Shown: positions 16,979-56,473 of the stretch, one piece after another | How positions within the stretch are numbered: the first letter of the stretch is position 1 | Layout of the letters: the number at the start of each line of letters is the position of its first letter | NCBI GenBank assembly: GCA_964631805.1 | Contig: CAZWAE010000002.1 | Location: 2,528 to 59,000 of the forward strand | Direction: 5' to 3' | From: an uncultured Desulfobacteraceae bacterium | GTDB taxonomy: Bacteria; Desulfobacterota; Desulfobacteria; Desulfobacterales; CAZWAE01 | DNA length: 56,473 nucleotides | Notes under the pieces: model-generated | Databases searched by the model: none | What the model was told of the DNA's origin: nothing | The model's input: only the letters and a program-made list of their open reading frames with translations | Made by a program: the position numbers and the translations under genes

Positions 16979-17113
16979 GAGCGAACCCTAAATTATTAGC
17001 TAAAGAATTTCATCCAACGGCCGATAATCAGATAGAAGCTGAAATAAAGTAAAAGAATCCTGTATAAAAATGGGCATGACAGGACACCACCCCACTGATT
17101 CGGATCTGAAAGC

Positions 17114-29678: not shown

Positions 29679-29760
29679 GTCTCTAACGGATATGTGGATT
29701 TTAACGGAACCGGGCCATTTGGAACATGACCATTTAAACTAAAAAAAGGGGTCTCATCTT

Positions 29761-39116: not shown

Positions 39117-39199
39117 TCGAAGATAAAACCGGTTTTGCAATTTAGACGATGAAATGAAACCTGCGGGAAGAATAGGTCCAACTCAAAGGGGGAGGATCA

Positions 39200-40546
39200 A
39201 TGGTAATGTTGAATGACCAGAATTCTGAATCTCATCGCCAGGATAAATTTGAAGCCCTGTCCGCCCTGATCAATATCGGAACCGCCATCGGCTTCATGCC
39301 CATGGATTTGAAAGCCTCCTTGCAGTTTTTCGTAGAAGAAACGAGGAAGTTATTTAATGCTTATGGCTGTGCAATTTTATCGTTGAATGGTAGGATGAAT
39401 TTTGACCTGGTTTATTCAGGACCATCGGATATGGGGAAAAAACTATGCAAGTCTTGTAATATCAAGGAATGTATCGTTATCAGGGACGAGTTACCTTTTA
39501 TTATCAAGGATACAAAGAGGAAAGACAGAAGATGCAGAGGATTTGAGTCTGACAGAAAAGTAAAATCCTATGCATGCCTGCCTATTTTAACGAGGAAAAA
39601 ACTGGTGGGCATCCTGACAATTTGCAGTTTAGGAAAGCATGCTTTCCCCCAGGACTATCTGGAGATAATGCTGTCGGTTGCCACCATGGCAGCTTCCATT
39701 ATTCAGCGGGCACAACTGTTCCATAATTTGGAGGCGGAAAAGAGACGATTAGAAAGGGCCAATGAGGAGATTAACAAATTAAACATCGATTTAGAAACGA
39801 AGATCGATGATTTGAAAGAGGCTCAAAACCAGATTATTCAAACAGAGAAATTGGCTGTGGCCGGAAGACTTGCAGCAGGGGTTGCCCATGAGGTGAACAA
39901 TCCCATCGGGATTATCATCAACAGGATAGAGTGCCTCCAGTCAGAGGCTAAAGAAAAAAACGTCTCGGATGAACTGATAAAGGACTTATGCACAATAGGG
40001 AAGTATGCCCACAAGATTTCCAAAATCGTGGAAGATCTCTCCATTGTCTCCAGAACCACCTATTCCGAGTCCAAATTTTCCAGACTCGATATCAATGAAT
40101 TCCTGGCAGATGTTTTTTTTCTTGTGGAGCAGAAAATAAAGGGAAAACGGCTGAAGTTCATAAAAAACCTATCTTCCGAAAATCTCTTTATCATGGGAGA
40201 TTCGGAACGGCTCGAACAGGTTTTCGTCAACGTGGTGGAAAACGCTATTCACGCCGTTCAAGGCAGCGGGGCGATAACGGTGGCCACGAGAGAGGACAGG
40301 AAAGGTATCCGGGCCGAGATTTCCGATTCCGGGACGGGCATCCTGAAGGAGCACCTCGATAAAATATACGATCCGTTCTTTACTACCAAAGAGGTGGGAA
40401 AAGGAACCGGTTTGGGCCTGCCCATCAGCCAGGCCATCATTGCGGAGCACAATGCCTCCATCGATGTGAAGAGCCGGGTCAACAGGGGCACCACTTTCAC
40501 AATCACCTTTCCAAAGGCGCCAAAGCTGAATACTGAAATGCCATGA
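39200..40546 (+). CDS. GAF-domain sensor histidine kinase
   Basis: N-terminal GAF-like region with the Cys cluster CKSCNIKEC..RRC..YAC. Coiled coil, H-box AAGVAHEVNNPIG, then DSGTGI and GTGLGL. Confidence 0.85.
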   Translation: MVMLNDQNSESHRQDKFEALSALINIGTAIGFMPMDLKASLQFFVEETRKLFNAYGCAILSLNGRMNFDLVYSGPSDMGKKLCKSCNIKECIVIRDELPFIIKDTKRKDRRCRGFESDRKVKSYACLPILTRKKLVGILTICSLGKHAFPQDYLEIMLSVATMAASIIQRAQLFHNLEAEKRRLERANEEINKLNIDLETKIDDLKEAQNQIIQTEKLAVAGRLAAGVAHEVNNPIGIIINRIECLQSEAKEKNVSDELIKDLCTIGKYAHKISKIVEDLSIVSRTTYSESKFSRLDINEFLADVFFLVEQKIKGKRLKFIKNLSSENLFIMGDSERLEQVFVNVVENAIHAVQGSGAITVATREDRKGIRAEISDSGTGILKEHLDKIYDPFFTTKEVGKGTGLGLPISQAIIAEHNASIDVKSRVNRGTTFTITFPKAPKLNTEMP

Positions 40547-41937
40547 CGACCTATAGAGAAAAAATATTGATCATCGACGATGAAGCGGAGATGTTGGACA
40601 ATTGCCGTCGTATACTTAAACGATCGGGCTACGACTGCATGCTGTTGCAGCAAAGCGAGGATTTCTCCCGGGTTTTTAAGGAGGAGCCTGCGGACCTTAT
40701 ACTGACGGACCTGCGGATGCCCAAAAAGGATGGCATGAACGTGCTAAAGGAGGCAAAAGCAATAGACCCGGATGTGGTTGTGCTCCTGTTTACGGCCTAT
40801 GGCACCATCCAATCCGCTTTAGAAGCATGCAAACTGGGGGCTTTCGATTACATCCAAAAACCCTTTTCAGCGGAACAGTTGCGAATCGCGGTTAACAGGG
40901 GAATCAAACAGAAAAGACTTTCAGACGAGAACAAATACCTCCGCTCTCAACTCAAGGAGGAATTCGGGTTCAGCAGAATCATCGGGAAAAGTGCGCCGCT
41001 CAATGAGGTCTTGAAACTCATAAAAAAAGTGTCCAAAACAGAGGCGAATATTTTAGTCCTGGGGGATAGCGGGACGGGCAAGGAGCTGGTCGCCAGGAGC
41101 ATTCATGCAAACAGTGACCGCTCTCATCGGCCTTTTGTACCGGTAGACTGCGCGTCACTGCCCGAAAACTTGCTTGAAAGCGAACTTTTCGGCCATGAAA
41201 AAGGGACCTTCACCGATGCCCACGTAACCCGTCCCGGGATATTCGAATACGCCAACGGCGGGACCCTGTTTTTGGACGAAATAGGGGAACTGAGTATAAC
41301 CCTGCAGTCCAAACTGCTCCGGGTGTTGCAGGAACGACAGGTCAGGCGTGTGGGCGGAAGAAGGCTTCTAAATGTCGATGTGCGGATCATTACGGCAACG
41401 AATCAGAACCTGGGAAGGGCCACTGAGGAGGGTAGATTCCGGGAAGACCTTTTTTATCGTATAAATGTCATTACCATCCCCTTGCCCCCCCTGAAAGAGA
41501 GAAGGGAGGATATCCCTCTTCTTGCGAATCATTACCAGAGACATTTCAGCAAGGGCAGCAAAAATGAGGTAAAAGGAATCTCCAAAGAGGCCATGAAGCT
41601 TATGGAAAGGTATGATTGGCCGGGCAATGTGCGGGAGCTGCAAAATGTTGTTGAAAGAGCCGTATCCCTGACCGATTCCGAAATTATTGCTCCTGCGGAT
41701 CTTCCCGAATATATACGTAATAACAATGATTTTAATATCTTAAGCTCATTCAGAAAATCAAATTATAAAGATGCCAAAAAAGACTGGATACATTTTTTTG
41801 AAAAAAAATATTTATCCTCCCTTCTGGAACGGTACAATGGAAACATATCAAAGGCTGCCCGGGAAGCCCGGATCAACCGCAAGACCATCCATCGCATGCT
41901 GAAACGGCACAGACTCCCGGGTGGTCCTCCCGGATAG
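40543..41937 (+). CDS. Sigma-54-dependent response regulator (NtrC/AtoC family)
   Basis: ILIIDDEAEM..ILTDLRMPKKDG..KP, then GDSGTGKE, GTFTDA, LFLDEIG, RIITATN and a Fis-type HTH. ATGA overlap with the kinase gene. Confidence 0.9.
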   Translation: MTTYREKILIIDDEAEMLDNCRRILKRSGYDCMLLQQSEDFSRVFKEEPADLILTDLRMPKKDGMNVLKEAKAIDPDVVVLLFTAYGTIQSALEACKLGAFDYIQKPFSAEQLRIAVNRGIKQKRLSDENKYLRSQLKEEFGFSRIIGKSAPLNEVLKLIKKVSKTEANILVLGDSGTGKELVARSIHANSDRSHRPFVPVDCASLPENLLESELFGHEKGTFTDAHVTRPGIFEYANGGTLFLDEIGELSITLQSKLLRVLQERQVRRVGGRRLLNVDVRIITATNQNLGRATEEGRFREDLFYRINVITIPLPPLKERREDIPLLANHYQRHFSKGSKNEVKGISKEAMKLMERYDWPGNVRELQNVVERAVSLTDSEIIAPADLPEYIRNNNDFNILSSFRKSNYKDAKKDWIHFFEKKYLSSLLERYNGNISKAAREARINRKTIHRMLKRHRLPGGPPG

Positions 41938-41943
41938 AAATTG

Positions 41944-42062
41944 TGGCACACATGTCCCATATGGGTCCAACATGTCTCAACCCTGGCCATTAATCACAAA
42001 ATTCCCTTTAGAATCAAGTTGATACTTCATTTATTCCTGACATGCAATCTACATGTGTGCCA
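41944..42062. promoter_or_regulatory. Candidate enhancer (UAS) region for the act/nos sigma-54 promoter
   Basis: Perfect 12-bp inverted repeats TGGCACACATGT (41944-41955) and ACATGTGTGCCA (42051-42062). ACATGT hexamers recur, and a CCCATATGGG palindrome lies between them. The region is 150-265 nt upstream of the -24/-12 element. Confidence 0.4.
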
Positions 42063-42206
42063 GGAACATGGGTCAATGAGGTCTCAGTTCACCCCACCTG
42101 CCTCAACATCAATCTGCTATTCGATCCATGGATATTTCCACTAACAATCTGTTATCATAGTATTTTGCTTTATTTTCCCTATTTGAAAGCGGCTCATTCT
42201 GATCGA

Positions 42207-42222
42207 CGGCACAGGAATTGCT
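42207..42222 (+). promoter_or_regulatory. Sigma-54 (-24/-12) promoter
   Basis: cGGCACaggaaTTGCT has correct GG-N10-GC spacing and lies about 105 nt upstream of the first gene of the act operon. Confidence 0.6.
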
Positions 42223-42324
42223 TTGATTTTTGCTGAGTGTTGAGGAAAAAGGCCAATCCTCAAACCGCTATCATTACCCTCGATTCCATTTCAATCTCAC
42301 AATGAAAGAGACGGGAGTCCGGCT

Positions 42325-42705
42325 TTGGTGCCTGATACAAAATCCATACTGCTTGCCATTTCGGATGAGGATCTAAAGGCGCAAGTGTACGAAGTGCTGG
42401 ATGGCATCGAGGCCTGTACATTGACATGTGTGGGAGACAGCGGGGACGTACTCCTCAAAATATTGGATAAAGACATCGACCTGGCCATCATAGATGAAAA
42501 TATCGCCGGCATGGCCGGTTCCAAACTCATCGAAATTATAAAGAAGAGCAGGCCCAGAATTCCCCTGATTACAATATCCTCCGGCAATTCAAAAGAAGAA
42601 TTGGCCCGGGTACTGGAACAGGGGGTTTTCTACTTTATCATCACTCCCATCAACGGTGAAGAATTGAGACAGGCCGTTGAGAGTGCTTTGAAAACCAATC
42701 CATGA
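42325..42705 (+). CDS. Receiver-domain-like protein, atypical (conserved Lys replaced)
   Basis: ILLAISDED, DLAIIDENIAGMAG and LITISS are present, but the KP position reads FIITPING. TTG/GTG start; ATGA overlap with actA. Confidence 0.7.
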   Translation: MVPDTKSILLAISDEDLKAQVYEVLDGIEACTLTCVGDSGDVLLKILDKDIDLAIIDENIAGMAGSKLIEIIKKSRPRIPLITISSGNSKEELARVLEQGVFYFIITPINGEELRQAVESALKTNP

Positions 42706-43427
42706 ATCGTCAAACGGGAGCAAACGCTTTGGATGGAAGACGTTTAAAAAGATCAGAAAAACGGTCAGGGCTGGCGAGGCTTTTTTTTGTGCCGATCCTG
42801 TTATCGGCATTTTTATACTTAATCGTCGGGTTGGCAGGGGGGGCCGACGCGCCCGCCGAATCCGAACCGCCGGCCGAATTCCGCCAACCCATTGAATTCA
42901 GCCACAAGACGCACATCGAAAAGGGCGGGATGTCGTGCGAATTCTGTCATGTCTACGCCCGTCGTTCGATCAACTCCGGCGCTCCCGTCATGGCAACCTG
43001 TTTTGGATGTCACAGCGTGATTGCCGGATCGGATGATGATCCGAAGAAAGCTGCCGAAAAGCAGGATGCGATCAAAAAATTGTTGGAATTCAAACCCAAG
43101 GGAACGCCGGTTCAATGGAAAAAGATCCATGACGTCCCCGATTTTGTCCATTTTTCTCACAAACGCCACATTCAAGTCGGCTTTGACTGTACGGAATGCC
43201 ACGGAGAGATCAACCAGCACGATGTGTTATCCCCGCAAACCATGATCACTGACCTTAGCATGGGGTGGTGTATGAAATGTCATCGGGAAGGCAGGCAGAC
43301 GGTTGGGGGGGAAATTGCAGGTCCGGTTCGGGAAACAAGGGGCGGAACAATTATGGCGCAGGCCGCAAAACAACAACCCGACGGATTTTTGGTGGGATCA
43401 AAAGACTGCTACACATGTCACAAATAA
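42702..43427 (+). CDS. actA: Alternative Complex III pentahaem cytochrome c subunit
   Basis: N-terminal TM anchor and five CxxCH motifs: CEFCH, CFGCH, CTECH, CMKCH and CYTCH. Confidence 0.85.
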   Translation: MNRQTGANALDGRRLKRSEKRSGLARLFFVPILLSAFLYLIVGLAGGADAPAESEPPAEFRQPIEFSHKTHIEKGGMSCEFCHVYARRSINSGAPVMATCFGCHSVIAGSDDDPKKAAEKQDAIKKLLEFKPKGTPVQWKKIHDVPDFVHFSHKRHIQVGFDCTECHGEINQHDVLSPQTMITDLSMGWCMKCHREGRQTVGGEIAGPVRETRGGTIMAQAAKQQPDGFLVGSKDCYTCHK

Positions 43428-43439
43428 TAAGGAACAGGG

Positions 43440-46400
43440 ATGAATAGAAACTTAAGCCGCAGAAATTTCCTGAAGATGTCAGCACTGGGCGGCGCAACGA
43501 TGGTTGCCGCCGGGTGCTCCGATCCCATCGAGAAACTGGTTCCATTGCAGTTGCCACCCTACGACTATGTGTCCGGTGTTTCCATCCATTTTGCCACGAC
43601 CTGCCGGGAATGCTCAGCCGATTGCGGAATCATCGTAAGAACTCGCGAAGGAAGAGCGATCAAAGCCGAAGGAAATCCGCGACACCCCATAAGTGACGGA
43701 CGCATCTGCCTGCAGGGGCAGTCCATTCTCCAGGGACTCTACAGCCCGGCAAGAGCGGCCGGCCCGATGGTTGTGACCGACAAGGAGGCGCGCGGTGTCA
43801 GTTGGAAAGAAGGAAATCAACAACTGGTGGAGAAGCTGAATGTCGCAAAAAATGAAAGGAGCGGCATTCTCTATATCGGCCCGCCCAGAAGCGGCAGCTA
43901 TCCGGAGATGCTGAAAAAATGGCTTGACGGTATGGGAGGCGGAACGTCTCTTGAACTTGATATGACACCGGCAAACAGTTTAAAGCACGCCAACCGCATT
44001 GTATTTGGTAAGGAGGAGATCCCCCACTTTGCACTTGAAAAAGCCGACCTTCTCATCAATTTCGGGGCCGATTTTCTGGAAAGCTGGCTGAACCCGGTTC
44101 AGATGACCAAAAGCTATACCAGTATGCACCGTTACCAAGATGGGAAAAAAGGCCGGTATGTTCATATTGCGCCCCACCTGTCGCTGACCGGCACCAATGC
44201 CGATGAATGGATCTCCTGCCCGGTGGGCCATGAAACTTCCATCGCCCTGGCGCTCAGCCGCATCCTGCTCAAACAGGCAGAACATCTCTCCATCGACGAG
44301 AAACAGCGCCTCACGGAACTCCTCAGCGATTTCCCGGAAGACAAAATTGCAAAAGAGAGCGGTCTTGAATCCCGTGCACTTTCGAAACTGGCCGATGCAT
44401 TTGGGCAAAAAGGACGGAGCCTGGCGATCGCCGGAGGAAACTGCAGTGCCGGACCTGAAGCCACCCGGTTGCAGGTCGCTGTTAATATCCTCAATTATGT
44501 GGCCGGTAATATTGGGAAGACCGTTGTTTTCGGCGCGGATTACCGCATGGGCGGCAGCAGCATGACCGATCTGGATGCGGCGATCAAAGGAATGAAGGAG
44601 GGACGCTATCAACTGGTGATGATCGAAAACGTCAACCCGGTTTTTACTCTTCCCGAAAATTCAGGTTTCAAAGAGGCGTTGAAGACGGTCCCGTTTGTGG
44701 TCTCATTGTCCACGGAAAACGATGAAACCTCCGAACTCGCCGATCTGCACCTGCCGACGGCTCATTTCTTAGAGAGCTGGGGGGACGCCCTCCCGAGAAA
44801 TGGTGTTTTTGCTCTGCAGCAGCCGGTCATGGCAACCGTGCCGGGCTTCAATGCCAGGGAGGTCGGCGGATTGATGCTCGAATTGGCCCGGCTGGTTGAA
44901 ATCGAGGGTGTTGAAGCCCCTAATTACCGGGATTATATCAAAGCTTCCTGGAAAATCCTGCATCAAAAATTAGACACCTCTCTGCCGTTTGATAAATTCT
45001 GGAAAAAATCCCTGCAAAATGGCGGACATTATGAAGACTTCAAACCGTCAACCGCCGTTCTCAGCCGTGACATCTTTGCGCTAAAGTTCCCCCCTCCTCC
45101 GGAAAAAACCATCGGTCTCAGCCTGCTGGCCGTCAACTCCAATCTGCACAATGCCAATGCCAGGGGAGGCAACAGGACATGGCTCATGGAAATACCCCAT
45201 CCGGTAACCCAGGTGGTGTGGGACTCCTGGCTTGAACTCCACCCCGATACCGCCGTCAAACTGGGGATAAGACACGGCGATCTTGTCGAAATCACAACCT
45301 CTTACGGAAAAGCGGAGGCGGCCGCATGGGTGTTTTACGGTATCGATAAAAATACCGTGGCCATGCCGGCAGGATTGGGTCGAAAGGTGCCGTTTCCCAA
45401 TTACAAATCCAGCCACGGCCAAAGCAAATTGATACCGGTCCTGGAATCGGAATTGAAAGTGGAAGAAAAAATGGTGGGAATCAACGTCATGGACCTTCTG
45501 TCCTGGCGCAGAGACAGCCTTTCGGGCGATTTTGTTTTTGCAGGGGAAAGGGTGAGAATCAAACCTACCGGTAAAAAGGCTTATCTCGTAACCATGGACG
45601 GGCAGTACCGTAAAGATATTGAGACCCCAAAAGCTGAAGACAAGACGGGGTTTGGAGATCGCAGTCAGAAAGGGAGAGGGTTTGTCCAGGTAATGTCTGT
45701 CGGCGGGAGCGAACAGCCGTATAAGGAACACGCCCCGGCGCACCATGCCCGGAAGCGTTTTTATACACTGAATCGTGATGACAAGAGGAGTTTCTATGAC
45801 CCCATGGCGGAAAACGTCCAAAACGCGGTAAAAAAAGCGGGTAAAAAAACACCGGTTTATCACGATCCCTACAAATGGGAAATGATCATCGATCTGGATC
45901 GCTGCACCGGCTGTTCCGCCTGTGTGGCGGCTTGTTATGCCGAAAACAACATCCCGTTGGTTGGAAAGGACCGCTCGAATGTGGGGCGGGAGATGAGCTG
46001 GCTTCGGCTCGAACGATATTTTGAAAAAAACAAACAGACCGGGCGTCTGGAGACCTATTATTCACCCCAGATGTGCCAGCAATGCGACAACGCCGGCTGC
46101 GAGCCGGTCTGCCCCGTGTTCGCCACCTACCAGACCCCCGATGGCCTGAACGCCATGATCTATAATCGTTGTGTGGGAACCCGATATTGCTCAAACAATT
46201 GCGTTTTTAAGATGAGACGTTTCAACTGGAGGGATTACCAGTTTCCAAAGCCGCTGCAGATGCAGCTCAATCCGGCCGTGTCGGTCCGCTCCAGGGGCGT
46301 GATGGAAAAATGTACCTTCTGTCAACATCGGATCCGGGAGATCAAAGACCGGGCCAAAGACCAAGGGCGCGAAGTAAGGGATGGTGAAATCCAGACAGCC

Positions 46401-46577
46401 TGCCAACAGGCCTGTCCAGCCGATGCAATCACTTTTGGGAATATCAAGGATCAAAACAGCAATGTAAAACAGATGAAGGGAAAAAGCCGGCGCAAATACA
46501 CCCAACTGCCCGAGTTGAATTTCAAGCCTGCGATCACCTATCTGAAAAAAGTGAACCTCAATAACCGAAAAGTCTAG
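43440..46577 (+). CDS. actB: Alternative Complex III subunit B (molybdopterin-oxidoreductase-like domain plus 4Fe-4S ferredoxin domain)
   Basis: Tat signal SRRNFLKMSALGGATMVAAG and a 1045-aa fusion. The C-terminal part carries CTGCSACVAAC, CQQCDNAGCEPVCP, CVGTRYCSNNC, CTFCQHR and CQQACP. Confidence 0.9.
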   Translation: MNRNLSRRNFLKMSALGGATMVAAGCSDPIEKLVPLQLPPYDYVSGVSIHFATTCRECSADCGIIVRTREGRAIKAEGNPRHPISDGRICLQGQSILQGLYSPARAAGPMVVTDKEARGVSWKEGNQQLVEKLNVAKNERSGILYIGPPRSGSYPEMLKKWLDGMGGGTSLELDMTPANSLKHANRIVFGKEEIPHFALEKADLLINFGADFLESWLNPVQMTKSYTSMHRYQDGKKGRYVHIAPHLSLTGTNADEWISCPVGHETSIALALSRILLKQAEHLSIDEKQRLTELLSDFPEDKIAKESGLESRALSKLADAFGQKGRSLAIAGGNCSAGPEATRLQVAVNILNYVAGNIGKTVVFGADYRMGGSSMTDLDAAIKGMKEGRYQLVMIENVNPVFTLPENSGFKEALKTVPFVVSLSTENDETSELADLHLPTAHFLESWGDALPRNGVFALQQPVMATVPGFNAREVGGLMLELARLVEIEGVEAPNYRDYIKASWKILHQKLDTSLPFDKFWKKSLQNGGHYEDFKPSTAVLSRDIFALKFPPPPEKTIGLSLLAVNSNLHNANARGGNRTWLMEIPHPVTQVVWDSWLELHPDTAVKLGIRHGDLVEITTSYGKAEAAAWVFYGIDKNTVAMPAGLGRKVPFPNYKSSHGQSKLIPVLESELKVEEKMVGINVMDLLSWRRDSLSGDFVFAGERVRIKPTGKKAYLVTMDGQYRKDIETPKAEDKTGFGDRSQKGRGFVQVMSVGGSEQPYKEHAPAHHARKRFYTLNRDDKRSFYDPMAENVQNAVKKAGKKTPVYHDPYKWEMIIDLDRCTGCSACVAACYAENNIPLVGKDRSNVGREMSWLRLERYFEKNKQTGRLETYYSPQMCQQCDNAGCEPVCPVFATYQTPDGLNAMIYNRCVGTRYCSNNCVFKMRRFNWRDYQFPKPLQMQLNPAVSVRSRGVMEKCTFCQHRIREIKDRAKDQGREVRDGEIQTACQQACPADAITFGNIKDQNSNVKQMKGKSRRKYTQLPELNFKPAITYLKKVNLNNRKV

Positions 46578-46585
46578 GAGGCGAC

Positions 46586-48432: not shown

Positions 48433-48979
48433 AACCCTTTTGTTTGCCGGTATTTTATTGTCCGTCCTATTGGTTTCGGCCAATCTCATGGCCAGATCGT
48501 CCGTGCTCACCGTGATGACGGACATGTTTAACCAGGTCAGCATCAAACCGCAGGAAAAGGGGAGTATGAATGCGTTTGTCGTCGGTGCCGTCACCTTTGA
48601 CGGCAGCGAGATCGAAGACCCGAACGATCGGTTCAGCCGGATCATAAAGGATGTTGTCTCCAAGACCGCCACAATCAACCCCAATAAACCGGATGCGCCG
48701 TCTCTTACCGACGGGAAACGGAAATTCAACACTTTTTGCGCGGTGTGTCACGGATCCAGCCGGGAGATCAATGCAGAGGGTTTCGCCAAGACCAAGGTCA
48801 ATGAACTGGGTATGATTGCGCCGGCCGTTATCACGCTGACGCCCCATTTCAGTGACGGCTATATTTATCATAAGGCCAAGTACGGGGGACCGGTGATGCC
48901 TGCGCTTGGATATGCCGTGGCCGCAGACGAGAGATGGAATATTGTCAACTACATTCGTGAACTGGAGAAGCAGGAATGA
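48422..48979 (+). CDS. actE: Alternative Complex III monohaem cytochrome c subunit
   Basis: Signal/anchor sequence, a single CAVCHG motif and a later Met-containing GGPVMPALG. Confidence 0.8.
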   Translation: MRVRTLLFAGILLSVLLVSANLMARSSVLTVMTDMFNQVSIKPQEKGSMNAFVVGAVTFDGSEIEDPNDRFSRIIKDVVSKTATINPNKPDAPSLTDGKRKFNTFCAVCHGSSREINAEGFAKTKVNELGMIAPAVITLTPHFSDGYIYHKAKYGGPVMPALGYAVAADERWNIVNYIRELEKQE

Positions 48980-50280
48980 GCAGGGACAGCGAAATAAAAA
49001 TCCTTCTGGATGAAACCCGTTTTACCCTCAGCGGCGGGCTGCAAAAGCTTCTGCTGTGTTTTGTCGGAATCGGCGTTATCGGCTTTGGTGCCGGACTCAT
49101 CGGCAGCAGCTCATATCTGGCCTGGCAGGCGCTGCTTGTCAACACCATGTTTTTCGGCGGCATCGCCCTGGGCGGTCTGGGTTTTTCCCTGATATTCACC
49201 ATCACCAATGCAAAATGGGGAAGGCCGATCAAGCGTCTCACAGAGGCGTTTGGGGCATTTGTGCCCATCGGTGCGGCTCTCCTCTGCCTGCTTTTTTTCG
49301 GCGCCGACCATTTCTTTGAATGGATGGATCATGACAAAGTGATGCATGCCAAGGCAGGGTGGTTGAATTTTCCATTTTTTATCATCCGGAATGTGGTTTT
49401 CCTGGGACTGTTTGTTGCCGGCGGCAGCTACTATCTGAAAACCGTGATCAGACCGGATATCGGATTGGCCGGGAAGGTCAGCGGCTTCGGTAATCCTTTT
49501 GCCGACCGGTTCGTTGGCAATTACGGTGCCCAAAAGGAGGAGGAGGCCGTAGCGGAAAAAAGGGCGAAAACGCTTGCACCGCTGTTGGCACTGCTTTTTT
49601 TCCTCCTCAGCACTCTTTTGGCATTCGACTGGATGATGTCCATCGATCAGGAGTGGTTCAGCACCATGTTCGGTGTGCAATATGCCATTTCAAACCTGAT
49701 CGGCGCAGCAGCCGTCCTTTTGATCGTTGCCGGAATTGCCCGGAACCATTTTGGTTTGGCCGAGTATATCACCATCGACCGCTATCACGATCTGGCCAAG
49801 CTGACGTTTGCCTTCTGCGCCCTGTGGACCTATCTGGTTTTTTCTCAGGTTCTGGTCATCTGGTACAGCAACATTCCCGAGGAGACCCCTTACCTGATCC
49901 TCAGGATGCAGTCCGTGGAATGGGGCTGGATGTTCTGGTTTATCTTGGTCCTCATGTTTATCATTCCCTTTTTCGGGTTGATGAGCCGGACCGCGTGCAA
50001 TTCCATCTGGTTTTCGAGGCTGGTTGCCGTGGATGTCCTGGTCGGGACCTGGCTGGAAAAATATTTCCTGATTGTACCTTCCATCCAGGAGAACAATGCA
50101 AGTGCGGGTTTAATTGATGCAAGCGGCGGGCTTCCGGGTTTTTCCCCGAACTTTTATGATCTATCGATTACCCTTGGCGTATCGGGTGTTTTTTTGTTGA
50201 GCTATTTCTGGTTTCTGCAACGGGTGCCGGCGGTCCCGATTTCGGATCCTCTTTTTTTCAGAAAATCGACCGACCATTAG
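48976..50280 (+). CDS. actF: Alternative Complex III second NrfD-like membrane subunit
   Basis: 434-aa polytopic membrane protein; ATGA overlap with actE. Confidence 0.8.
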   Translation: MSRDSEIKILLDETRFTLSGGLQKLLLCFVGIGVIGFGAGLIGSSSYLAWQALLVNTMFFGGIALGGLGFSLIFTITNAKWGRPIKRLTEAFGAFVPIGAALLCLLFFGADHFFEWMDHDKVMHAKAGWLNFPFFIIRNVVFLGLFVAGGSYYLKTVIRPDIGLAGKVSGFGNPFADRFVGNYGAQKEEEAVAEKRAKTLAPLLALLFFLLSTLLAFDWMMSIDQEWFSTMFGVQYAISNLIGAAAVLLIVAGIARNHFGLAEYITIDRYHDLAKLTFAFCALWTYLVFSQVLVIWYSNIPEETPYLILRMQSVEWGWMFWFILVLMFIIPFFGLMSRTACNSIWFSRLVAVDVLVGTWLEKYFLIVPSIQENNASAGLIDASGGLPGFSPNFYDLSITLGVSGVFLLSYFWFLQRVPAVPISDPLFFRKSTDH

Positions 50281-50303
50281 TGTGGAACGGGTAAGGAGGC
50301 AAT

Positions 50304-50486
50304 ATGGATCTATTAAACATCATTTTCCCCCAGGGGTTTCAACTATTCACTTTGATCGCCTGGACGGTCTGCGGCCTGCTTTTCGGACTTCAGTCGTTTT
50401 TCGGGATAGCGTTGACATTTTCTCTGTTGGGTCACCTGGTCCAGTTTGTTTTTAAAAAAACGTCGCTGCACGTTGATCGTACATAG
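50304..50486 (+). CDS. Small hydrophobic protein (two predicted TM segments), possibly an ActG-like accessory subunit
   Basis: 60 aa. FTLIAWTVCGLLFGL and FFGIALTFSLLGHLVQFVF. AAGGAGG RBS, 23 nt after actF. Confidence 0.4.
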   Translation: MDLLNIIFPQGFQLFTLIAWTVCGLLFGLQSFFGIALTFSLLGHLVQFVFKKTSLHVDRT

Positions 50487-50564
50487 ATTCGGGATTTTCG
50501 GGTTCAAAAATGGCCGAAATTCATGTGGGATGTTTTTAGGCCGAGCTCATAGTGGTTGCCTGAT

Positions 50565-50580
50565 GGTTTAAAGTTAAACC
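50565..50580. promoter_or_regulatory. Palindrome upstream of nosZ, possible operator
   Basis: GGTTTAA-ag-TTAAACC lies 57-72 nt upstream of the nosZ ATG. Confidence 0.25.
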
Positions 50581-50636
50581 AATGGATAACGGGGGCATCT
50601 TCGTTAATTTTATTACATAGGGAAAAGGAGGATCAG

Positions 50637-52571
50637 ATGGTGAACAAATTGAAAAGTTCGTTTCAGCTTGTTTTAATCGGCATGATCGTTCTGGGATTAT
50701 GTGCAACGGCAGGTGCGCAATCCCTGGAACAGGTCATGAAGGAGAGAGGGCTTTCCCAGACAGATATTCTGGCCGCAGCCAAAACGTACACACCCACCGG
50801 GAAACTGGATGAGTATGTGGTCTTCTCTTCGGGGGGACAATCCGGACAGGTCATTGTTTACGGCGTGCCCTCCATGAGAATTCTGAAATACATAGCCGTT
50901 TTCACACCGGAGCCGTGGCAGGGATATGGCTATGGTGATGTCGACAGTATGGCAATTCTCGACCAGGGCCGCATCCGTGGCCGGAAGATTACCTGGGGCG
51001 ATACCCATCACCCGGCAATATCTGAAACCGCCGGGGAATACGACGGCCAATATCTGTTTATCAATGATAAGGCCAACCCGCGTGTGGCGGTAATCGATCT
51101 CAAGACCTTCAGTACGGTTCAAATCGTGCCCAATCCGATTATGAAGTCGGAACATGGTGCGGCATTTGTAACACCCGATACGGAGTATGTTCTGGAGGCT
51201 TCCCAATATCCCGCACCATTTACCAATGACTATGTGCCGCTGGAAGAGTTCAACGAGAAATACCGCGGCGCCATGTCCTTCTGGAAATTTAACCGGAAAA
51301 AGGGAAAGATCATCACCGAGAACTCATTCTCCGTGGAATTGCCCCCTTACGCCCAGGACCTGTCGGATGCCGGTAAAAAGATCAGTGCCGGGTGGGTCTT
51401 CACCAATTCATTTAATTCGGAACGATATATCGGGGGGTTTGGACCCGGCAACACCAAGTTCAGGGACCGATTGCCAAATGAAGCGGGAATGTCGGCAAAA
51501 GACACCGACTACCTGCACATGATCCATTTGGATACCGCCAAAAAGCTTTTCAAAGAGGGAAAATTCACCAAGATCAACGGGCATGCCGTGATCTCGATGA
51601 AGACCATGGTGGAAAACAATGCCCTGTTCCTGATTCCGGAACCCAAGAGTCCCCATGGCGTGATGATCGATCCTACCGGGCAGTACCTGACGGTTTCCGG
51701 AAAACTGGATACCCATGTATCCGTATATGACTTCAAGAAGATGAAAAAGCTCATCGACAGCAAGACCTATGAAGGCAGGGACCCCTACAACATTCCTATT
51801 CTCAGCATGACAGATTCGCTGCACGGCCAGGTGGAATTAGGCCTGGGACCGCTGCATACCCAGTATGACAAGGAAAAGGGAATCGCCTACACCTCCCTGT
51901 TTGTGGATTCAGCCATCGCCAGGTGGGATTTTTTGAAGCTGAAGCTCATCGAAAAGGTGCCGATCCATTACAATGTGGGGCATCTGGTCTCGGCTGAAGG
52001 CGATACCGTTTCACCCGATGGTAAATACCTGGTAGCATTAAACAAACTGGCCATCGATCGATTTGTGCAGGTCGGTCCGCTGCATCCCCAGAACCATCAA
52101 TTGATCGATATTTCTGCTGGTAAACCGATGCAGGTGCTTTATGATATGCCGCTTCCCTTGGGAGAACCCCATTATGCAGTCATGATAAAGGCTGACAAGC
52201 TGAAAACCCTTAAACGCTTCAAGCAGAAATGGTTCAAAAATCGGGTGAAACCCGGCAGGGAAAGGGTGGTCCGGGACGGCAACAAGGTCTCGATTCATTC
52301 AACCATTATCAGGAGCCATTACAGTCCGGAAGTGATCGAGGTAAAGGTCGGCGATGAGATCACCTGGCACGTGACCAACCTGGAGAGAGCCCAGGATGAG
52401 ACCCACGGGTTTACCATCGACAACTACAACGTGAACGGCAGTCTGGAGCCCGGAGAAACCAATACCTTTAAATTTACGGCGGATAAAGAAGGGGTTTTCC
52501 CGTTCTATTGTACTGAATTTTGTTCCGCCCTGCATTTGGAAATGACGGGATACTTTCTGGTCAAACCGTAA
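50637..52571 (+). CDS. nosZ: Nitrous-oxide reductase, Sec-dependent (clade II / atypical) type
   Basis: Start ATG 50637 with an AAAGGAGG RBS. The signal peptide MVNKLKSSFQLVLIGMIVLGLCATAGAQS has no twin-arginine. The beta-propeller region carries WGDTHHP, and the C-terminal CuA motif is CTEFCSALHLEM. Confidence 0.9.
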   Translation: MVNKLKSSFQLVLIGMIVLGLCATAGAQSLEQVMKERGLSQTDILAAAKTYTPTGKLDEYVVFSSGGQSGQVIVYGVPSMRILKYIAVFTPEPWQGYGYGDVDSMAILDQGRIRGRKITWGDTHHPAISETAGEYDGQYLFINDKANPRVAVIDLKTFSTVQIVPNPIMKSEHGAAFVTPDTEYVLEASQYPAPFTNDYVPLEEFNEKYRGAMSFWKFNRKKGKIITENSFSVELPPYAQDLSDAGKKISAGWVFTNSFNSERYIGGFGPGNTKFRDRLPNEAGMSAKDTDYLHMIHLDTAKKLFKEGKFTKINGHAVISMKTMVENNALFLIPEPKSPHGVMIDPTGQYLTVSGKLDTHVSVYDFKKMKKLIDSKTYEGRDPYNIPILSMTDSLHGQVELGLGPLHTQYDKEKGIAYTSLFVDSAIARWDFLKLKLIEKVPIHYNVGHLVSAEGDTVSPDGKYLVALNKLAIDRFVQVGPLHPQNHQLIDISAGKPMQVLYDMPLPLGEPHYAVMIKADKLKTLKRFKQKWFKNRVKPGRERVVRDGNKVSIHSTIIRSHYSPEVIEVKVGDEITWHVTNLERAQDETHGFTIDNYNVNGSLEPGETNTFKFTADKEGVFPFYCTEFCSALHLEMTGYFLVKP

Positions 52572-52664
52572 ATCTCCAAATCGTTTTTTTCTTTATACGG
52601 AATTTTTCAAACAATTGATATTTCACGATATATTAAATTCAATCGAGAAAAATGGAGATGACTC

Positions 52665-53174
52665 ATGAAAACGAACATGATGAAACGAATCTCTTTGTTT
52701 GTTACACTGATTGCGTTTCTGTGTCTGGCCGGGAACGTATCCGCCGATGAGCATTATCAACAGAAATACAAAACAAAGGTGAAACAGAACAACGACACCA
52801 TCGGCATTATCGCGGGGGTGATAAACTATGTATGCCCCAAACTGGTCCCCGCTTCCACCAATATCTGCAATGCAAAAGACCCGGTGGGATCCGCGGTGGG
52901 GGTGCAGAAGTATATGGAACAGAACTGGGACAAAGAGGAGGACGATATCGAAGATGCCGAAATGCCGGAGCTGTTGAACAAAAAGGCCGCCTTGCAATTC
53001 TGGGATGCGGTGGAACAGTTCAAGGGGCATTTCCCATGGCGCGAAAAAGCAAAAATGGCCTCTGAGAAAGGCGAATGGCAAGATGCTTTCCTCAACGAGG
53101 AGATGGCATGGCAATATCTGGTCAAATGTGCCAGCCGGGGGATTTTTGCCAAGAAAATAGTGGATGGCCAATAA
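52665..53174 (+). CDS. Secreted protein of unknown function
   Basis: Signal peptide MKRISLFVTLIAFLCLAGNVSA, followed by a charged, Trp-rich mature part. I recognise no family motif. Confidence 0.6.
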   Translation: MKTNMMKRISLFVTLIAFLCLAGNVSADEHYQQKYKTKVKQNNDTIGIIAGVINYVCPKLVPASTNICNAKDPVGSAVGVQKYMEQNWDKEEDDIEDAEMPELLNKKAALQFWDAVEQFKGHFPWREKAKMASEKGEWQDAFLNEEMAWQYLVKCASRGIFAKKIVDGQ

Positions 53175-53351
53175 TTAATCGGTTCAAAGGTCCAGGATTC
53201 TGCGGATTGGTTGTTTTCAAAACCGTGAATCCCGGAACAGAGAGCGGCAGATAGGATTGAATCCGCTGGTTGTGATGAATGCGGTCATTTGTTACAATCA
53301 GCGGAAACCCTGCAAAGGCTCTTTTTAAACGGTATTACAACAGGACACATC

Positions 53352-53948
53352 ATGAAAAAATTTCTTGTTTCCGCGGCAGCGCTTTTTCTACTCGGCGGAT
53401 TATTCCAGACGGCCAACGTTTTCGCGGAAGATCCGGCTCTGTTATTCGAAAAACTGACCTGCCATACCTGCCACGGTCCCCAGGGAAAAGGCATGATACG
53501 CACCGAAACAAAGGAACGGTATTATCTGAGAAAAAAGAAAATGTTCCGGCAGATGGTCAAGGAGGGAATTCCTATTGCCACAGTCAAAGAATTAAGGCCC
53601 CTTTACAAGAAAAGGTTCGATGATAAAGGAAAATTTATCGGGGCCATTGAAGCGCTGATAGGAAAAGACCGGACCGAGAAATACAAAGAGATCATTATTA
53701 AAATTGGCGGAAGGATCTATTACCACAAAGGCGATTTGATCCCGGGATTCGAAGATTATCCCAGGCACGCCGGCAACAAACGGATTTACCTGTATCAACA
53801 GATGAAAGACATACTCGAAGGTAGAAGAACAAACGGCAATTCAGAGGCGATGAGAGGCATAAAGCCTTACATCGAGAGCAATAAGATTACAGATGATGAC
53901 TTTATGGACATTGCCGAATACTTATCCAATGTTAAGGTTGAAGAATGA
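53352..53948 (+). CDS. Monohaem c-type cytochrome with a large insertion
   Basis: Signal MKKFLVSAAALFLLGG and haem motif CHTCHG. The distal part YPRHAGNKRIYLYQQMKD..NSEAMRG..IAEYL is c4-like, but is separated from the haem motif by about 85 aa. Confidence 0.75.
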   Translation: MKKFLVSAAALFLLGGLFQTANVFAEDPALLFEKLTCHTCHGPQGKGMIRTETKERYYLRKKKMFRQMVKEGIPIATVKELRPLYKKRFDDKGKFIGAIEALIGKDRTEKYKEIIIKIGGRIYYHKGDLIPGFEDYPRHAGNKRIYLYQQMKDILEGRRTNGNSEAMRGIKPYIESNKITDDDFMDIAEYLSNVKVEE

Positions 53949-54005
53949 TAGAGATTGAATTCGAAACTGTTTCGGATTTAATTATTTAATAAGGAGGTAA
54001 GATAG

Positions 54006-55133
54006 TTGAAAATCAAAATTATTCCAAAATCCTGCAAAAGTCTGATGACAGCGATTTTAACACTCTCTTTGATTGTTCTCTCAATTTATGCCTTCGCGGA
54101 CGAAAAGCCCATGAGTGCCGAGGAGTTGAGAAAGGCCGCAGCCGAAAAAGCCGCCGCGCTGGTCAAGCCTCCCCCCGGGGGCAAGTGGAAAGCCACCGCA
54201 GCAGAGGCGTTGGAAGCGTTGAAGATTGATGGGGATGTGGAAGAGGGTGAAGAAATTTATACGGTTTGTGCGGCCTGCCACCAACCCACCGGCTGGGGCG
54301 ATCCCCTCGGGGTGTTTCCGCAGCTCGCCGGCCAGCACAAAACGGTCCTGATAAAACAGATCTCCGATATCAGGGCCGGAAACCGTGACAACCCCACCAT
54401 GTATCCCTTTGCCATGCAAATCGAAGGCGCACAGGATATCGCTGACGTCTGCTCCTATATTCAAACGTTGAAAATGAATCCCAATCCCCGGGTTGGCCCG
54501 GGCGGGCCGTCCTGGGTTTTATCCAACCTGCGGAAGGAGGTGTGGCCCATATCCCTGGACAAGATCCAGAAAGATGTAGGAAATGATAATTTCAAAAAAC
54601 TGAAAAGCATTGAAGAAAAGGAATATAAAAGCAAAAAGGCCTTCAAAGAAGCGTTAAAAAATACCATCGGTGCCGGGGAACTGGAAAAACATGAGGCCGT
54701 AATCTCTAAAAACGCGGATTGGGAAACCAACTTGGAACTGGGCAAAGGCCTTTATGAGAAAAACTGTGTTAAGTGCCACCAGGATCATGGCCAGGGCAAC
54801 TGGAAAGAAGAGCCTCCGGTTATCGAGGGTCAAAAAGAAGAGGACAAACCGAAGGTGGAAGCGGCATATTTCCCGGTCCTGGCTGGACAGACCTATCTCT
54901 ATTTGGTCCGGCAGTTCAGCTGGATTCAGATCGGAAAGAGGAGAAATGCCAACCCCGATATGGTGAAACAAATCAAAGAGTTTTCTTTTCTCGATATGAA
55001 GAGCGTTGTGGATTATGCCGGTCGCTTTAAAATGCAGGAAGGGGATTGGCAGGACGTCGGCTTTAAAGATGAAGAGGGGTGGGATCTTGGCGAGGAAGAA
55101 GAGGATGATGATATCCCCGCGCATTTGAAATAA
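54006..55133 (+). CDS. Dihaem c-type cytochrome (c4-like domains with a long linker and acidic tail)
   Basis: CAACHQ..FPQLAGQ..NPTMYPF and CVKCHQ..FPVLAGQTYLYLVRQ..NPDM. TTG start and signal/anchor sequence. Confidence 0.8.
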   Translation: MKIKIIPKSCKSLMTAILTLSLIVLSIYAFADEKPMSAEELRKAAAEKAAALVKPPPGGKWKATAAEALEALKIDGDVEEGEEIYTVCAACHQPTGWGDPLGVFPQLAGQHKTVLIKQISDIRAGNRDNPTMYPFAMQIEGAQDIADVCSYIQTLKMNPNPRVGPGGPSWVLSNLRKEVWPISLDKIQKDVGNDNFKKLKSIEEKEYKSKKAFKEALKNTIGAGELEKHEAVISKNADWETNLELGKGLYEKNCVKCHQDHGQGNWKEEPPVIEGQKEEDKPKVEAAYFPVLAGQTYLYLVRQFSWIQIGKRRNANPDMVKQIKEFSFLDMKSVVDYAGRFKMQEGDWQDVGFKDEEGWDLGEEEEDDDIPAHLK

Positions 55134-55161
55134 AAGCAAACTCAAATTAAGAGGGCTATGG

Positions 55162-55986
55162 ATGAAGGGCAGCATAAAAAAGAGAATAATTCTTAGCAAA
55201 ATCCTGGCAGGATTTGCCATAATCTTGCTTTTGGGAACATACACACTGAAGCCGTTGTTTCAATACCGTGATCCGGTGGCCATGGATGAAGAGGACGAAA
55301 TCGAGGAAAACGAGTCCTTTCAACCGTTTGCATTTTTAATACCGGAAGGCACTGATTTTTACGCACCTCAAAGTAAACATTTGAGGCCTCTCATGGGGGA
55401 TAAGATCTGGGAATATCATCCCACCGGTTTTTATGCGTATCTGATCGGATACAAAACCATGCCGATCTGGAGGGTATCGCTGGAAGCGCCCCAGTATCCA
55501 AAAGCCGCTTTTCCCGACGGGATTCCCATATTTTTCAATTTGACCGATTGGAGCGGCAAGGTAAACGAGATGAATACCATCAACCACTACATCGGTATGA
55601 ATCCCATGGAAGCCGGCGCGGTAACGCTACGCAAACTGGTGCCTTTTGTATACCTCTTGTTTTTCATCATGCTATTTGCCTATCTGTTTTACAATGGTCC
55701 CGGCTGGTGGTTGCTCGGGATTGTTCCCGCTTTTCTCCCCTGGTTCTATCTGGCATTCTTCAGTAAGTGGCTGTACTGGTTCGGACACCATCTACACCCC
55801 TGGGGAGCCTTCAAAATAAAACCCTTTATGCCGACGGTATTTGGTGACGGGAAGGTCGCCCAGTTTACGACCCATTCCTACCCCGCTATTGGCTTTTATG
55901 TTCTACTGGGGGTTTTCATCCTGCTGGTATTGTCTGTATTGATCCGTCGAAAAGCGCTAAAGGATAGGGATGCAACCGATTTATGA
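55162..55986 (+). CDS. Integral membrane protein of the nos cluster (possibly NosB-like; assignment tentative)
   Basis: N-terminal TM, a periplasmic segment of about 110 aa (..NEMNTINHYIGMNP..), then 3-4 TM segments. It lies between the cytochromes and nosD. Confidence 0.55.
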   Translation: MKGSIKKRIILSKILAGFAIILLLGTYTLKPLFQYRDPVAMDEEDEIEENESFQPFAFLIPEGTDFYAPQSKHLRPLMGDKIWEYHPTGFYAYLIGYKTMPIWRVSLEAPQYPKAAFPDGIPIFFNLTDWSGKVNEMNTINHYIGMNPMEAGAVTLRKLVPFVYLLFFIMLFAYLFYNGPGWWLLGIVPAFLPWFYLAFFSKWLYWFGHHLHPWGAFKIKPFMPTVFGDGKVAQFTTHSYPAIGFYVLLGVFILLVLSVLIRRKALKDRDATDL

Positions 55987-56124
55987 TCTCTGGGAAAGCC
56001 GGAGGGTTTGATTTCTCTTAATCATTATCGTCTTCGAAATCCGGCGAATTGTCCACCTCCCAAACGATGGGAACCTCTCGGGCATCGTCCCCGGGGGGGC
56101 CCTGATGATTGAGGCGAAAAGGTT

Positions 56125-56473
56125 TTGAAAAATCTTCCAATTCTATTTTTTTTAATCGCCTGCCTTCCTGTTTCCCCGATATGGGCCGGTCTGGAATCTT
56201 CACTCCAGGTGCTGATTGATCAGACACCGGAAGGAGAAAGGGTCCAGCTCGATCCCGGCACTTATACGGGCCCGGTCATCATCGATAAAGCTGTCACACT
56301 GGATGGAAAAGGTCTGGTAACCCTCGATGGCCTGGGAAAAGGATCGGTGCTGGTTCTCAAAGCGGATGGTGTCGTAATTAAAAACCTGACCATCACCAAT
56401 TCGGGCGATAGTCACGATAAGGTGGATGCCGGTATCCTGGTTCGTTCCTCCCGAAATCGGATACTCAACAATA
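56125..56473 (+). CDS. nosD: NosD (periplasmic beta-helix nos maturation protein), N-terminal part; runs off the right edge
   Basis: Absent from the track (no stop in the window). Hand translation from TTG 56125 gives (M)KNLPILFFLIACLPVSPIWAGLESSLQVLIDQTPEGERVQLDPGTYTGPVIIDKAVTLDGKGLVTLDGLGKGSVLVLKADGVVIKNLTITNSGDSHDKVDAGILV.. Confidence 0.75.
   Translation, partial: MKNLPILFFLIACLPVSPIWAGLESSLQVLIDQTPEGERVQLDPGTYTGPVIIDKAVTLDGKGLVTLDGLGKGSVLVLKADGVVIKNLTITNSGDSHDKVDAGILVRSSRNRILNN

Follow-up and report, generated by a model that had tools for sequence, protein, structure and literature searches.

Gene content and organization of the act–nos locus

We analysed a stretch of 56,473 nucleotides (hereafter, the window) from an uncultured Desulfobacteraceae bacterium (assembly GCA_964631805.1, contig CAZWAE010000002.1, positions 2,528–59,000 of the forward strand), in which positions 39200–56473 of the window carry a full set of genes for Alternative Complex III (ACIII), actABCDEF, followed by a clade II nosZ gene for nitrous oxide (N2O) reductase and by nos accessory genes (Table 1). 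Examination of the open reading frame (ORF) list, Pfam and NCBIfam searches and a reading of the translations revealed an unbroken series of ORFs on the plus strand, so that the gene list, gene order and strand proposed in an initial annotation, which had been made from the sequence alone, all stand. Its description of the junctions as short or overlapping is equally well founded: overlaps of 4 nt join the sensor kinase gene to the activator gene, the receiver gene to actA, actC to actD and actE to actF, and the remaining gaps measure 8–177 nt, with the exception of the 387 nt between the activator and receiver genes. Given that every frame is open and that the NosZ ligands are intact, we rejected the possibility that the window copy is a pseudogene or a relic. 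A scan of positions 39000–56473 against Rfam returned no RNA families, and no tRNAs were found in the window.

Table 1. Features of the act–nos region, with positions given in the window unless a locus is named.
Feature	Position	Strand	Evidence
GAF-HisKA-HATPase sensor kinase, cytoplasmic	39200–40546	+	Pfam GAF_2, HisKA, HATPase_c
NtrC-type sigma-54 activator, REC-AAA+-HTH_8	40543–41937	+	Sigma54_activat 235 bits, Response_reg 93 bits, HTH_8
Candidate upstream activator-site region	41941–42086	unassigned	Palindrome-like repeats, inverted repeat
Predicted sigma-54 -24/-12 promoter element CGGCACAGGAATTGCT	42207–42222	+	Pattern search, 1 mismatch
Receiver-only gene (single-domain response regulator)	42325–42705	+	Response_reg 47 bits
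ActA, pentahaem cytochrome c of ACIII	42702–43427	+	5 CxxCH; PDB ACIII subunit A
ActB, Tat-exported molybdopterin-like/4Fe-4S fusion	43440–46577	+	Pfam domains; PDB 6f0k_B
ActC, NrfD-type quinol-interacting membrane subunit	46586–47905	+	NrfD 92 bits
ActD membrane subunit	47902–48432	+	PF11821 139 bits, E 2e-40, full length
ActE, monohaem cytochrome c	48422–48979	+	1 CxxCH, Cytochrome_CBB3
ActF, second NrfD-like membrane subunit	48976–50280	+	PDB ACIII subunit F
60-aa hydrophobic ORF	50304–50486	+	Conserved coding sequence in orthologous loci
NosZ, clade II (Sec-dependent)	50634–52571	+	TIGR04246 853 bits
169-aa secreted protein, family-less	52665–53174	+	No match in Pfam or NCBIfam search
19-bp stem-loop	53263–53304	+	Folding z-score, compensating changes
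Monohaem cytochrome c with signal peptide, NosC1-like position	53352–53948	+	1 CxxCH, Cytochrom_C
Dihaem cytochrome c with N-terminal anchor or signal, NosC2-like position	54006–55133	+	2 CxxCH, Cytochrom_C 63.5 bits
274-aa membrane protein, positional NosB	55162–55986	+	Homologues directly upstream of nosD
nosD 5' end, cut by window end	56125–56473	+	Full gene on L001, TIGR04247 377 bits
Rieske/cytochrome b/c module of relatives	L087 20991–21950; L119 8734–11888; L116 2752–3697

The ACIII subunit set is complete, comprising the haem cytochromes ActA and ActE, the fused ActB, the membrane subunits ActC and ActF, and ActD. The best matches of ActA in the PDB are subunit A chains of ACIII (8k9e_A, 6f0k_A, 6btm_A and 6lod_A), whereas the single 1045-aa ActB protein, in which Pfam recognizes TAT_signal, Molybdop_Fe4S4, Molydop_binding and Fer4_7, is most similar to 6f0k_B (E 2e-126), followed by 6lod_B, 8k9e_B and 6btm_B. 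The Pfam search with ActF yielded no match; its PDB matches are headed by ACIII subunit F chains (6btm_F, 6lod_F, 8k9e_F and 6f0k_F; E 2e-29 to 2e-21), after which come the ACIII subunit C chains. The structures matched by these three proteins are the ACIII of Rhodothermus, Flavobacterium, Roseiflexus and Chloroflexus. Two subunits have alternative starts, an ATG at 46667 in the case of ActC, according to the gene call on metagenome contig L001 (see below), and position 48440 in the case of ActE. By gene content, actABCDEF is thus a canonical ACIII with a predicted quinol:cytochrome c oxidoreductase activity.

A very improbable reading of the same genes is that the complex runs in reverse, in the manner of Qrc, delivering electrons from periplasmic cytochromes c to the menaquinone pool, so that NosZ is not fed. 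Qrc is a known relative of ACIII, and matches to its models were obtained below threshold for ActA with QrcA (79 bits; cutoff 180), ActB1 with QrcB (255 bits; cutoff 440) and ActB2 with QrcC (218 bits; cutoff 400). However, these scores fall far under the equivalog cutoffs, the locus encodes ActD, ActE and ActF, which are specific to ACIII and absent from QrcABCD, and we rejected an identity with Qrc on both counts; moreover, the best structural relatives are ACIII chains, and a neighbouring high-potential terminal reductase fits quinol oxidation.

The coding sequence of the 60-aa ORF downstream of actF is kept in six of the six orthologous loci. Since L169, from an assembly in which act and nos are split, holds this ORF beside actF, it travels with act rather than with nos, and the encoded hydrophobic peptide is probably a small ACIII-associated subunit.

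NosZ scores 853 bits against TIGR04246 (cutoff 625), compared with 399 bits against TIGR04244, the model of the Tat-dependent enzymes, and 203 bits against NF052460. Its N-terminus, MVNKLKSSFQLVLIGMIVLGLCATAGAQS, judged by eye, is a signal peptide of the Sec type that lacks a twin arginine, and the CuA motif CTEFCSALHLEM is present, both as initially annotated. The CuZ and CuA motifs follow one another as DTHHP, EHG, PHG, LHT, GHL and EPH, then THGF and CTEFCSALHLEM; all seven histidines of CuZ, as well as the ligands of CuA (H, C, C, H, M), are invariant in an alignment with nine homologues, and the ligand motifs line up with those of the solved NosZ structure 9f8x_A. The protein contains no CxxCH motif. 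Environmental homologues of the NosZ locus are very numerous at 77–91% identity.

The 169-aa secreted protein encoded next to NosZ has 243 homologues and, among the 120 listed, those named by their source are all annotated as hypothetical proteins. Its AlphaFold model is an all-helical bundle (pLDDT 80) that matched generic helical bundles only, with no PDB match at E<=0.001. In this NosZ subclade, the gene is always located directly after nosZ, and homologues with 50–58% identity are found in a member of the Bdellovibrionaceae (L085) as well as in distant metagenomic nos loci (L122, L125). The protein may represent an undescribed NosZ partner. The stem-loop between this gene and the monohaem cytochrome gene coincides with a regional folding z-score of -4.4, and its stem is kept with compensating changes in L086, L088 and L171; other relatives carry different strong hairpins at this position. 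Because the G-U pairs occur on the sense strand and no T-run follows, the stem-loop resembles an element for RNA stability or processing more than a terminator.

Among the matches listed, partial homologues of the monohaem and dihaem cytochromes are present in 66 and 73 of 81 nos loci, respectively, and in 67 of 81 clade II loci a homologue of the 274-aa protein is encoded directly upstream of nosD. This 274-aa protein had no match in Pfam, NCBIfam or the PDB, and its identification as NosB is positional, as the search libraries include no curated NosB model.

Conservation of the act–nos gene string

To place the locus among its relatives, we surveyed the neighbourhoods of relatives of this NosZ, taking one genome per species and 10 kb on each side, and searched the 80 loci listed with all window proteins; this set is a sample rather than a census, and at least 8 kb upstream of nosZ was available in 55 of the loci. 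The act genes were found in two of the 80, those of the Olavius symbiont Delta 1 (NosZ 89% identical) and of an uncultured Desulfobacteraceae metagenome-assembled genome (77%), both of which display the order activator–receiver–actABCDEF–small ORF–nosZ–169-aa protein–two c-type cytochromes–NosB–nosD. The other 78 loci, mostly from Rhodocyclales, other Proteobacteria and Myxococcota, with NosZ 61–67% identical, have no ACIII and share the cytochromes, NosB, NosD, NosG, NosF and NosY. Contigs of closer homologues add four syntenic lineages (L084, L086, L088 and L171), among which L086 and L088 are fully syntenic and L171 also includes the GAF kinase; L170 confirms this kinase in Delta 1. The complete string is thus present in at least seven lineages, namely, the window together with L001, L002 (the same as L170, Olavius Delta 1), L003, L084, L086, L088 and L171. 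Hence, the adjacency of ACIII and nosZ, for which the initial annotation had proposed a survey of clade II genomes, is conserved within this group of lineages and does not extend to the 78 other clade II loci listed.

Across the string-bearing lineages, identity to the window proteins is 77–89% for NosZ and 61 to 87% for ActF, and the two values fall together by lineage (ActF 81, 61, 65, 77 and 77% versus NosZ 89, 77, 81, 82 and 84%), which is what inheritance as a single unit would predict. Five pairs of NosZ and ActF matches on contigs of equal size (52314, 49575, 18831, 6486 and 5310) suggest that further act–nos contigs lie behind them. At positions 1–1645 of L084, a double-Cache HisKA_3 kinase and a GerE (NarL-type) regulator replace the GAF kinase and the NtrC-type activator, and the receiver-only gene is absent; since act and nos are kept together under these other regulators, their link is independent of the regulator.

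The nos genes beyond the window

The continuation of the cluster was read from JGI metagenome contig Ga0118727_1000970 (L001), which was located through the 274-aa protein and is 99.86% identical to window positions 45162–56473 over 11,312 bases. Past the window end, L001 carries nosD (Table 1), nosF, nosY, two NosL genes and a 107-aa gene, followed by a MacB/FtsX-type permease and an ATPase, a 339-aa gene, a third NosL-like gene, a 191-aa weakly NosL-like gene and, at L001 positions 19741–20825, the genes for NosG, a NapG-like ferredoxin (NF007012, 162 bits), and NosH, a Fer4_5 NapH-like protein. The nosG-nosH pair is situated ~8 kb past the window end. With nosDFYL present downstream, nosZ is not an orphan, which removes the concern, voiced in the initial annotation, that the maturation genes might be missing.

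No nosR- or nosX-like genes were found in the window or on L001, in agreement with the initial annotation. Its companion remark that no nosGH genes are visible is accurate inside the window and fails at the level of the locus, the absence being an artefact of a window that stops at the start of nosD. The conclusion built on that absence, namely, that the dedicated quinol module has to be ACIII, loses its support with the NosG and NosH genes of L001; because nosGH belong to the cluster, ACIII is probably one of two routes to NosZ.

Within L001 positions 14194–19760, the 107-aa and 339-aa genes are conserved, with no function assigned, and the extra NosL and permease genes of this segment have the look of another system, next to NosFY, for export or copper handling. 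The 191-aa weakly NosL-like gene is always found just before nosG-nosH. In two relatives, L098 and L095, nosH is followed by genes for a small cytochrome c, a Tll0287-like protein and a pentapeptide-repeat protein, next to which, a few kb past nosH, lies a convergent cluster of NapA-like, NapB-like, multihaem cytochrome, FeS and NrfD genes (L098 13898–20075; L095 14773–20782). This arrangement suggests that nitrate reduction adjoins N2O reduction in these relatives.

Natural variants of the nos backbone

Some relatives retain the nos backbone in combination with a different quinol-oxidizing module, or with none. In L087/L119 and L116, there is no ACIII, and genes for a Rieske protein, cytochrome b and a multihaem cytochrome c of 408 aa lie within the nos cluster, between nosH and nosL (Table 1); the NosZ of L087 is ~82% identical to that of the window. 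As Rieske/cytochrome b here replaces ACIII, a complex-III-type module emerges as a recurrent part of the nos backbone that comes in two non-homologous versions, and the swap argues that this module serves NosZ.

In GCA_030378005.1, actC, actD, actE and actF are present with the small ORF and without actA or actB on one contig (L169, 5511–9399), and the nos genes are found on a separate contig (L082, 602–18348), directly after a type I restriction-modification system and different receiver and kinase genes; this is a split and probably decaying version of the cluster. Finally, L085 (Bdellovibrionaceae, 72%) and the P0104 contig (70%) carry the nos backbone with nosGH and no complex III nearby, and ACIII is therefore not obligatory for this type of NosZ.

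Regulatory elements

The predicted promoter CGGCACAGGAATTGCT (CGGCAC-N5-TTGCT) is located 103 nt upstream of the receiver gene and differs from TGGCAC-N5-TTGCW by one mismatch. Taken alone, one match to this pattern carries no significance, 1.66 being expected per window, but the element occupies the same alignment column in the intergenic regions of L002, L003, L086 and L088, where two upstream palindromes, TG-GACAT..ATGTC-CA and GGGAC-N6-GTCCC, are conserved as well. In the window itself, a repeat search located palindrome-like repeats at 41941–41979 and 42068–42086, and a perfect 12-nt inverted repeat spans 41944–41955 and 42051–42062. Such column-wise conservation in orthologous intergenic regions supports the palindrome region and the GG-N10-GC promoter of the initial annotation and, because the promoter and the upstream sites are both conserved, renders sigma-54/NtrC control of act–nos plausible.

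The loop by which the activator would contact sigma-54 (residues ~214–226) reads GTFTDA, and that of its orthologues GAFTGA (L171), GAFTDA or GAFTSA, with the Phe-Thr core kept throughout. The same GAF kinase precedes the activator in L170 and L171. The receiver-only gene is conserved in L002/L170, L003, L086, L088 and L171; its product keeps the phospho-acceptor Asp, whereas the window, L171 and L088 have another residue (FIITP) in place of the conserved Lys, which L170 and L086 retain, and the protein may be a degenerate receiver.

Scans for sigma-70 and terminator consensus sequences gave counts near the shuffled expectation. In the gap between the small ORF and nosZ, a motif search detected neither a sigma-54 box nor an FNR box; the gap shows no terminator-like structure (folding z-score -0.39) and is poorly conserved except for the ribosome-binding site. 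These features of the actF–nosZ interval are consistent with transcriptional read-through.

Two further observations concern regulation and gene neighbourhood elsewhere in the window. A perfect sigma-54 consensus, TGGCACGACTGTTGCT, is found at 23787–23802, at the start of an MTHFR-like/HdrL-like/MetF gene string, and a second NtrC-type activator gene (22180–23547, minus strand) is located divergently just upstream of that string. Directly upstream of the GAF kinase gene, positions 37384–39116 encode a B12-binding protein and a URO-D-family (methyltransferase-type) protein, the gene for the latter being found in the same position upstream of the kinase in L171.

Proposed electron route to NosZ

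In the mechanism that we propose, positions 39200–56473 would form the first two-thirds of an N2O-respiration supercluster of ~27 kb. The GAF kinase would phosphorylate the NtrC-type activator, which would bind the palindromes ~150–260 nt upstream and open the sigma-54 promoter at 42207–42222, giving rise to a transcript that includes the receiver gene, actABCDEF with the small subunit, nosZ, the cytochrome genes, nosB and the genes from nosDFYL to nosGH; the stem-loop would probably confer on the messages of nosZ and the 169-aa gene a stability different from that of the accessory genes. ACIII would oxidize menaquinol and pass the electrons through the ActA/ActE haem wire to the monohaem and/or dihaem c-type cytochrome, and these carriers, whether soluble or anchored, would donate them to the CuA centre of the Sec-exported NosZ, which would reduce N2O to N2. 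ACIII would thereby fill the role of the Rieske/cytochrome bc complex known from Wolinella, and NosGH, NosB and a cytochrome would constitute a second route, acting in parallel or in activation. We consider it, on balance, probable that electrons follow this path from menaquinol via ACIII and one or both cytochromes to CuA, with NosGH/NosB as a second or activating route. Co-transcription, the direction of electron flow, cytochrome docking, energy conservation and the respiration of N2O by the organism are all parts of this scheme that we infer.

It is plausible that ACIII and NosZ are functionally tied, because the gene string is conserved as a unit and because a Rieske/cytochrome b module is present in sister lineages. 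Thus, the initial proposal that ACIII feeds NosZ through the two cytochromes retains its core and loses, with nosGH in the cluster, its exclusivity. Both predicted routes have published counterparts: according to a passage in PMC11539149 (citing Hein et al., 2017; Hein and Simon, 2019), electrons reach NosZ from complex III via cytochrome c and, in clade II, by an additional route composed of NosGH, NosB, NosC2 and NosC1. As judged from its genes, the cluster encodes both of these routes, with ACIII in the position of complex III. Since quinol oxidation by ACIII is described, in a passage of PMC7439408, as coupled to proton translocation, the ACIII route should conserve more energy than the NapGH-type route.

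Several points weigh against this assignment. The activator loop, GTFTDA, departs from the usual GAFTGA, and the 147-nt, poorly conserved gap before nosZ could hide an internal promoter. The nosG and nosH genes in the same cluster make up a predicted complete quinol route that is independent of ACIII, and L082/L083, L085 and P0104 keep the nos backbone without adjacent ACIII or Rieske/cytochrome b. Furthermore, other clients of ACIII, such as oxygen reductases, are possible outside the sequence examined.

There is also an alternative that we regard as a serious one, albeit unlikely: NosGH, NosB and NosC would be self-sufficient, and ACIII would be simply co-induced, feeding mainly other periplasmic acceptors, such as a cbb3 or aa3 oxidase in oxygen defence or a Nap-type nitrate reductase. 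The cluster does contain nosG and nosH along with their conserved small NosL-like partner, some relatives sharing the nos backbone do without ACIII, a NapA/NapB/multihaem/FeS/NrfD cluster is found just past nosH in L098 and L095, and in Methylacidiphilum IT6 oxidase genes adjoin the act–nos genes (PMC11102522). By contrast, at least seven lineages have act immediately upstream of nosZ and behind a promoter predicted to serve both; neither the ~56 kb window nor the orthologous loci, each of 20 kb, showed an oxidase gene; the placement of the Rieske/cytochrome b/c replacement inside the nos cluster suggests a nos-specific role; and in Wolinella neither the bc complex nor NosGH can be dispensed with (Hein, 2017, cited in a passage of PMC11539149).

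Host lineage and implications

Apart from the act–nos region, the window carries genes that are ordinary for an anaerobe, along with HdrL-like and MetF/MetV genes at 25030–31358, in line with the Wood–Ljungdahl-type background noted initially. The closest representative genome among the matches listed is that of the Olavius symbiont Delta 1; the Delta1a and Delta1b symbionts have been described as sulfate-reducing members of Sva0081, a widespread and uncultured clade (PMC7163020). By the 80–91% identity of the locus proteins, to which the comparison is confined, the window organism appears to be related to Sva0081/Olavius Delta 1. In cold seeps, Desulfobacterota were recently counted among the newly recognized bacteria that carry clade II nosZ (PMC11828985).

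This host background brings in another alternative, which we consider improbable: the intact cluster would serve as an electron sink not linked to growth or as a scavenger under N2O or nitric oxide stress, or it would be poorly expressed or inactive in sulfidic habitats. The copper centres of NosZ are sensitive to sulfide, which counts in favour of such a reading, as do the description of the host lineage as sulfate reducing (PMC7163020) and the existence of one relative in which the cluster is broken, with actCDEF lacking actAB and nos located elsewhere behind a restriction-modification island. Set against it are the large investment in maturation, which besides nosDFYL takes in three more NosL-like genes and another ABC system, the strong purifying conservation of all NosZ ligands, and the abundance of the environmental homologues, which indicates a maintained and widespread function.

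Returning to the ACIII-based route, its broadest version would be that Sva0081-type Desulfobacterales are energy-conserving N2O respirers equipped with a proton-translocating ACIII–cytochrome c–NosZ chain, a sigma-54 two-component switch, and ACIII and Rieske/cytochrome b as interchangeable cassettes. We put this forward tentatively, as a generalization that is more doubtful than the route itself. If true, it would reveal an overlooked N2O sink at the sulfidic/oxidized interface, and ACIII would gain a physiological partner besides oxygen reductases and auracyanin. To our knowledge, NosZ is the sole biological N2O sink known, and the supply of electrons to its clade II version is only partly understood. 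Desulfobacterales of the Sva0081 type rank with the most frequent sulfate-reducing bacteria in marine sediments, and some of them live as symbionts of gutless worms; the locus points to a potential for N2O reduction in an abundant uncultured lineage of sulfate reducers and in an animal symbiont, and the group may consume N2O. Metatranscriptomes and metaproteomes of this worm symbiont may already exist. One conserved cluster unites an analogue of complex III, both candidate cytochrome shuttles, NosB and NosGH, and the relatives endowed with ACIII, with Rieske/cytochrome b or with neither offer a comparative system for studying the route by which NosZ is fed and its energy yield.

Comparison with known systems

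All parts of the cluster belong to known families, and the feeding of NosZ by complex III is already an established idea. We found no publication describing an act–nos operon in Desulfobacterota, and the sole published case of ACIII–nos adjacency that we found is that of Methylacidiphilum caldifontis IT6, so that the initial statement that the linkage had been noted only at the genomic level is about right. In IT6, for which N2O respiration has been shown, the nos genes lie within the ACIII cluster beside oxidase genes (Awala et al., 2024; PMC11102522). Like the locus described here, IT6 possesses clade II nos genes (nosCZBLDFYC) that are physically joined to those for ACIII, and it lacks nosR and nosX; it differs in that nos interrupts act, aa3 and cbb3 oxidase genes are located alongside, and nos looks acquired from Aquificota (PMC11102522). 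In the window, by contrast, an intact actABCDEF precedes nosZ, no oxidase is in view, nosGH belong to the cluster, and the host lineage is one of sulfate reducers.

Wolinella succinogenes resembles the present system in its Sec-type NosZ, NosB, two c-type cytochromes, NosG/NosH and NosDFYL, and it also relies on a complex-III-type quinol:cytochrome c oxidoreductase alongside NosGH, the set given in a passage of PMC11539149 (citing Hein, Witt and Simon, 2017) being nosZ, -B, -D, -G, -C1, -C2, -H, -F, -Y and -L plus Rieske/cytochrome bc. In the present cluster, however, complex III is represented by ACIII, encoded in the same predicted transcription unit directly upstream of nosZ; nosGH are found at the far end, after the extra NosL-like and ABC genes; and the predicted regulation is of the sigma-54/NtrC type, whereas Wolinella employs Nss proteins of the Crp/Fnr type. 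The NosZ of Wolinella also has a C-terminal haem c domain, which the window NosZ lacks.

The ACIII of Rhodothermus marinus and Flavobacterium johnsoniae (6f0k, 6btm) have the same six subunits and provide best matches to ActA, ActB and ActF, but the act operons of these bacteria cluster with genes for haem-copper oxygen reductases, with which the complexes form supercomplexes, whereas the neighbour in the present case is NosZ. QrcABCD, which is found in the same phylum, has a related architecture of the NrfD family, with a multihaem cytochrome, a molybdopterin-like subunit, an FeS subunit and a membrane subunit; unlike ACIII, it reduces menaquinone and has no ActD, ActE or ActF. Against this background, what is new in the gene arrangement described here is an intact act operon located upstream of clade II nos genes under predicted sigma-54 control, its conservation in a lineage of sulfate reducers, the Rieske/cytochrome b alternative in sister lineages and the retention of nosGH.

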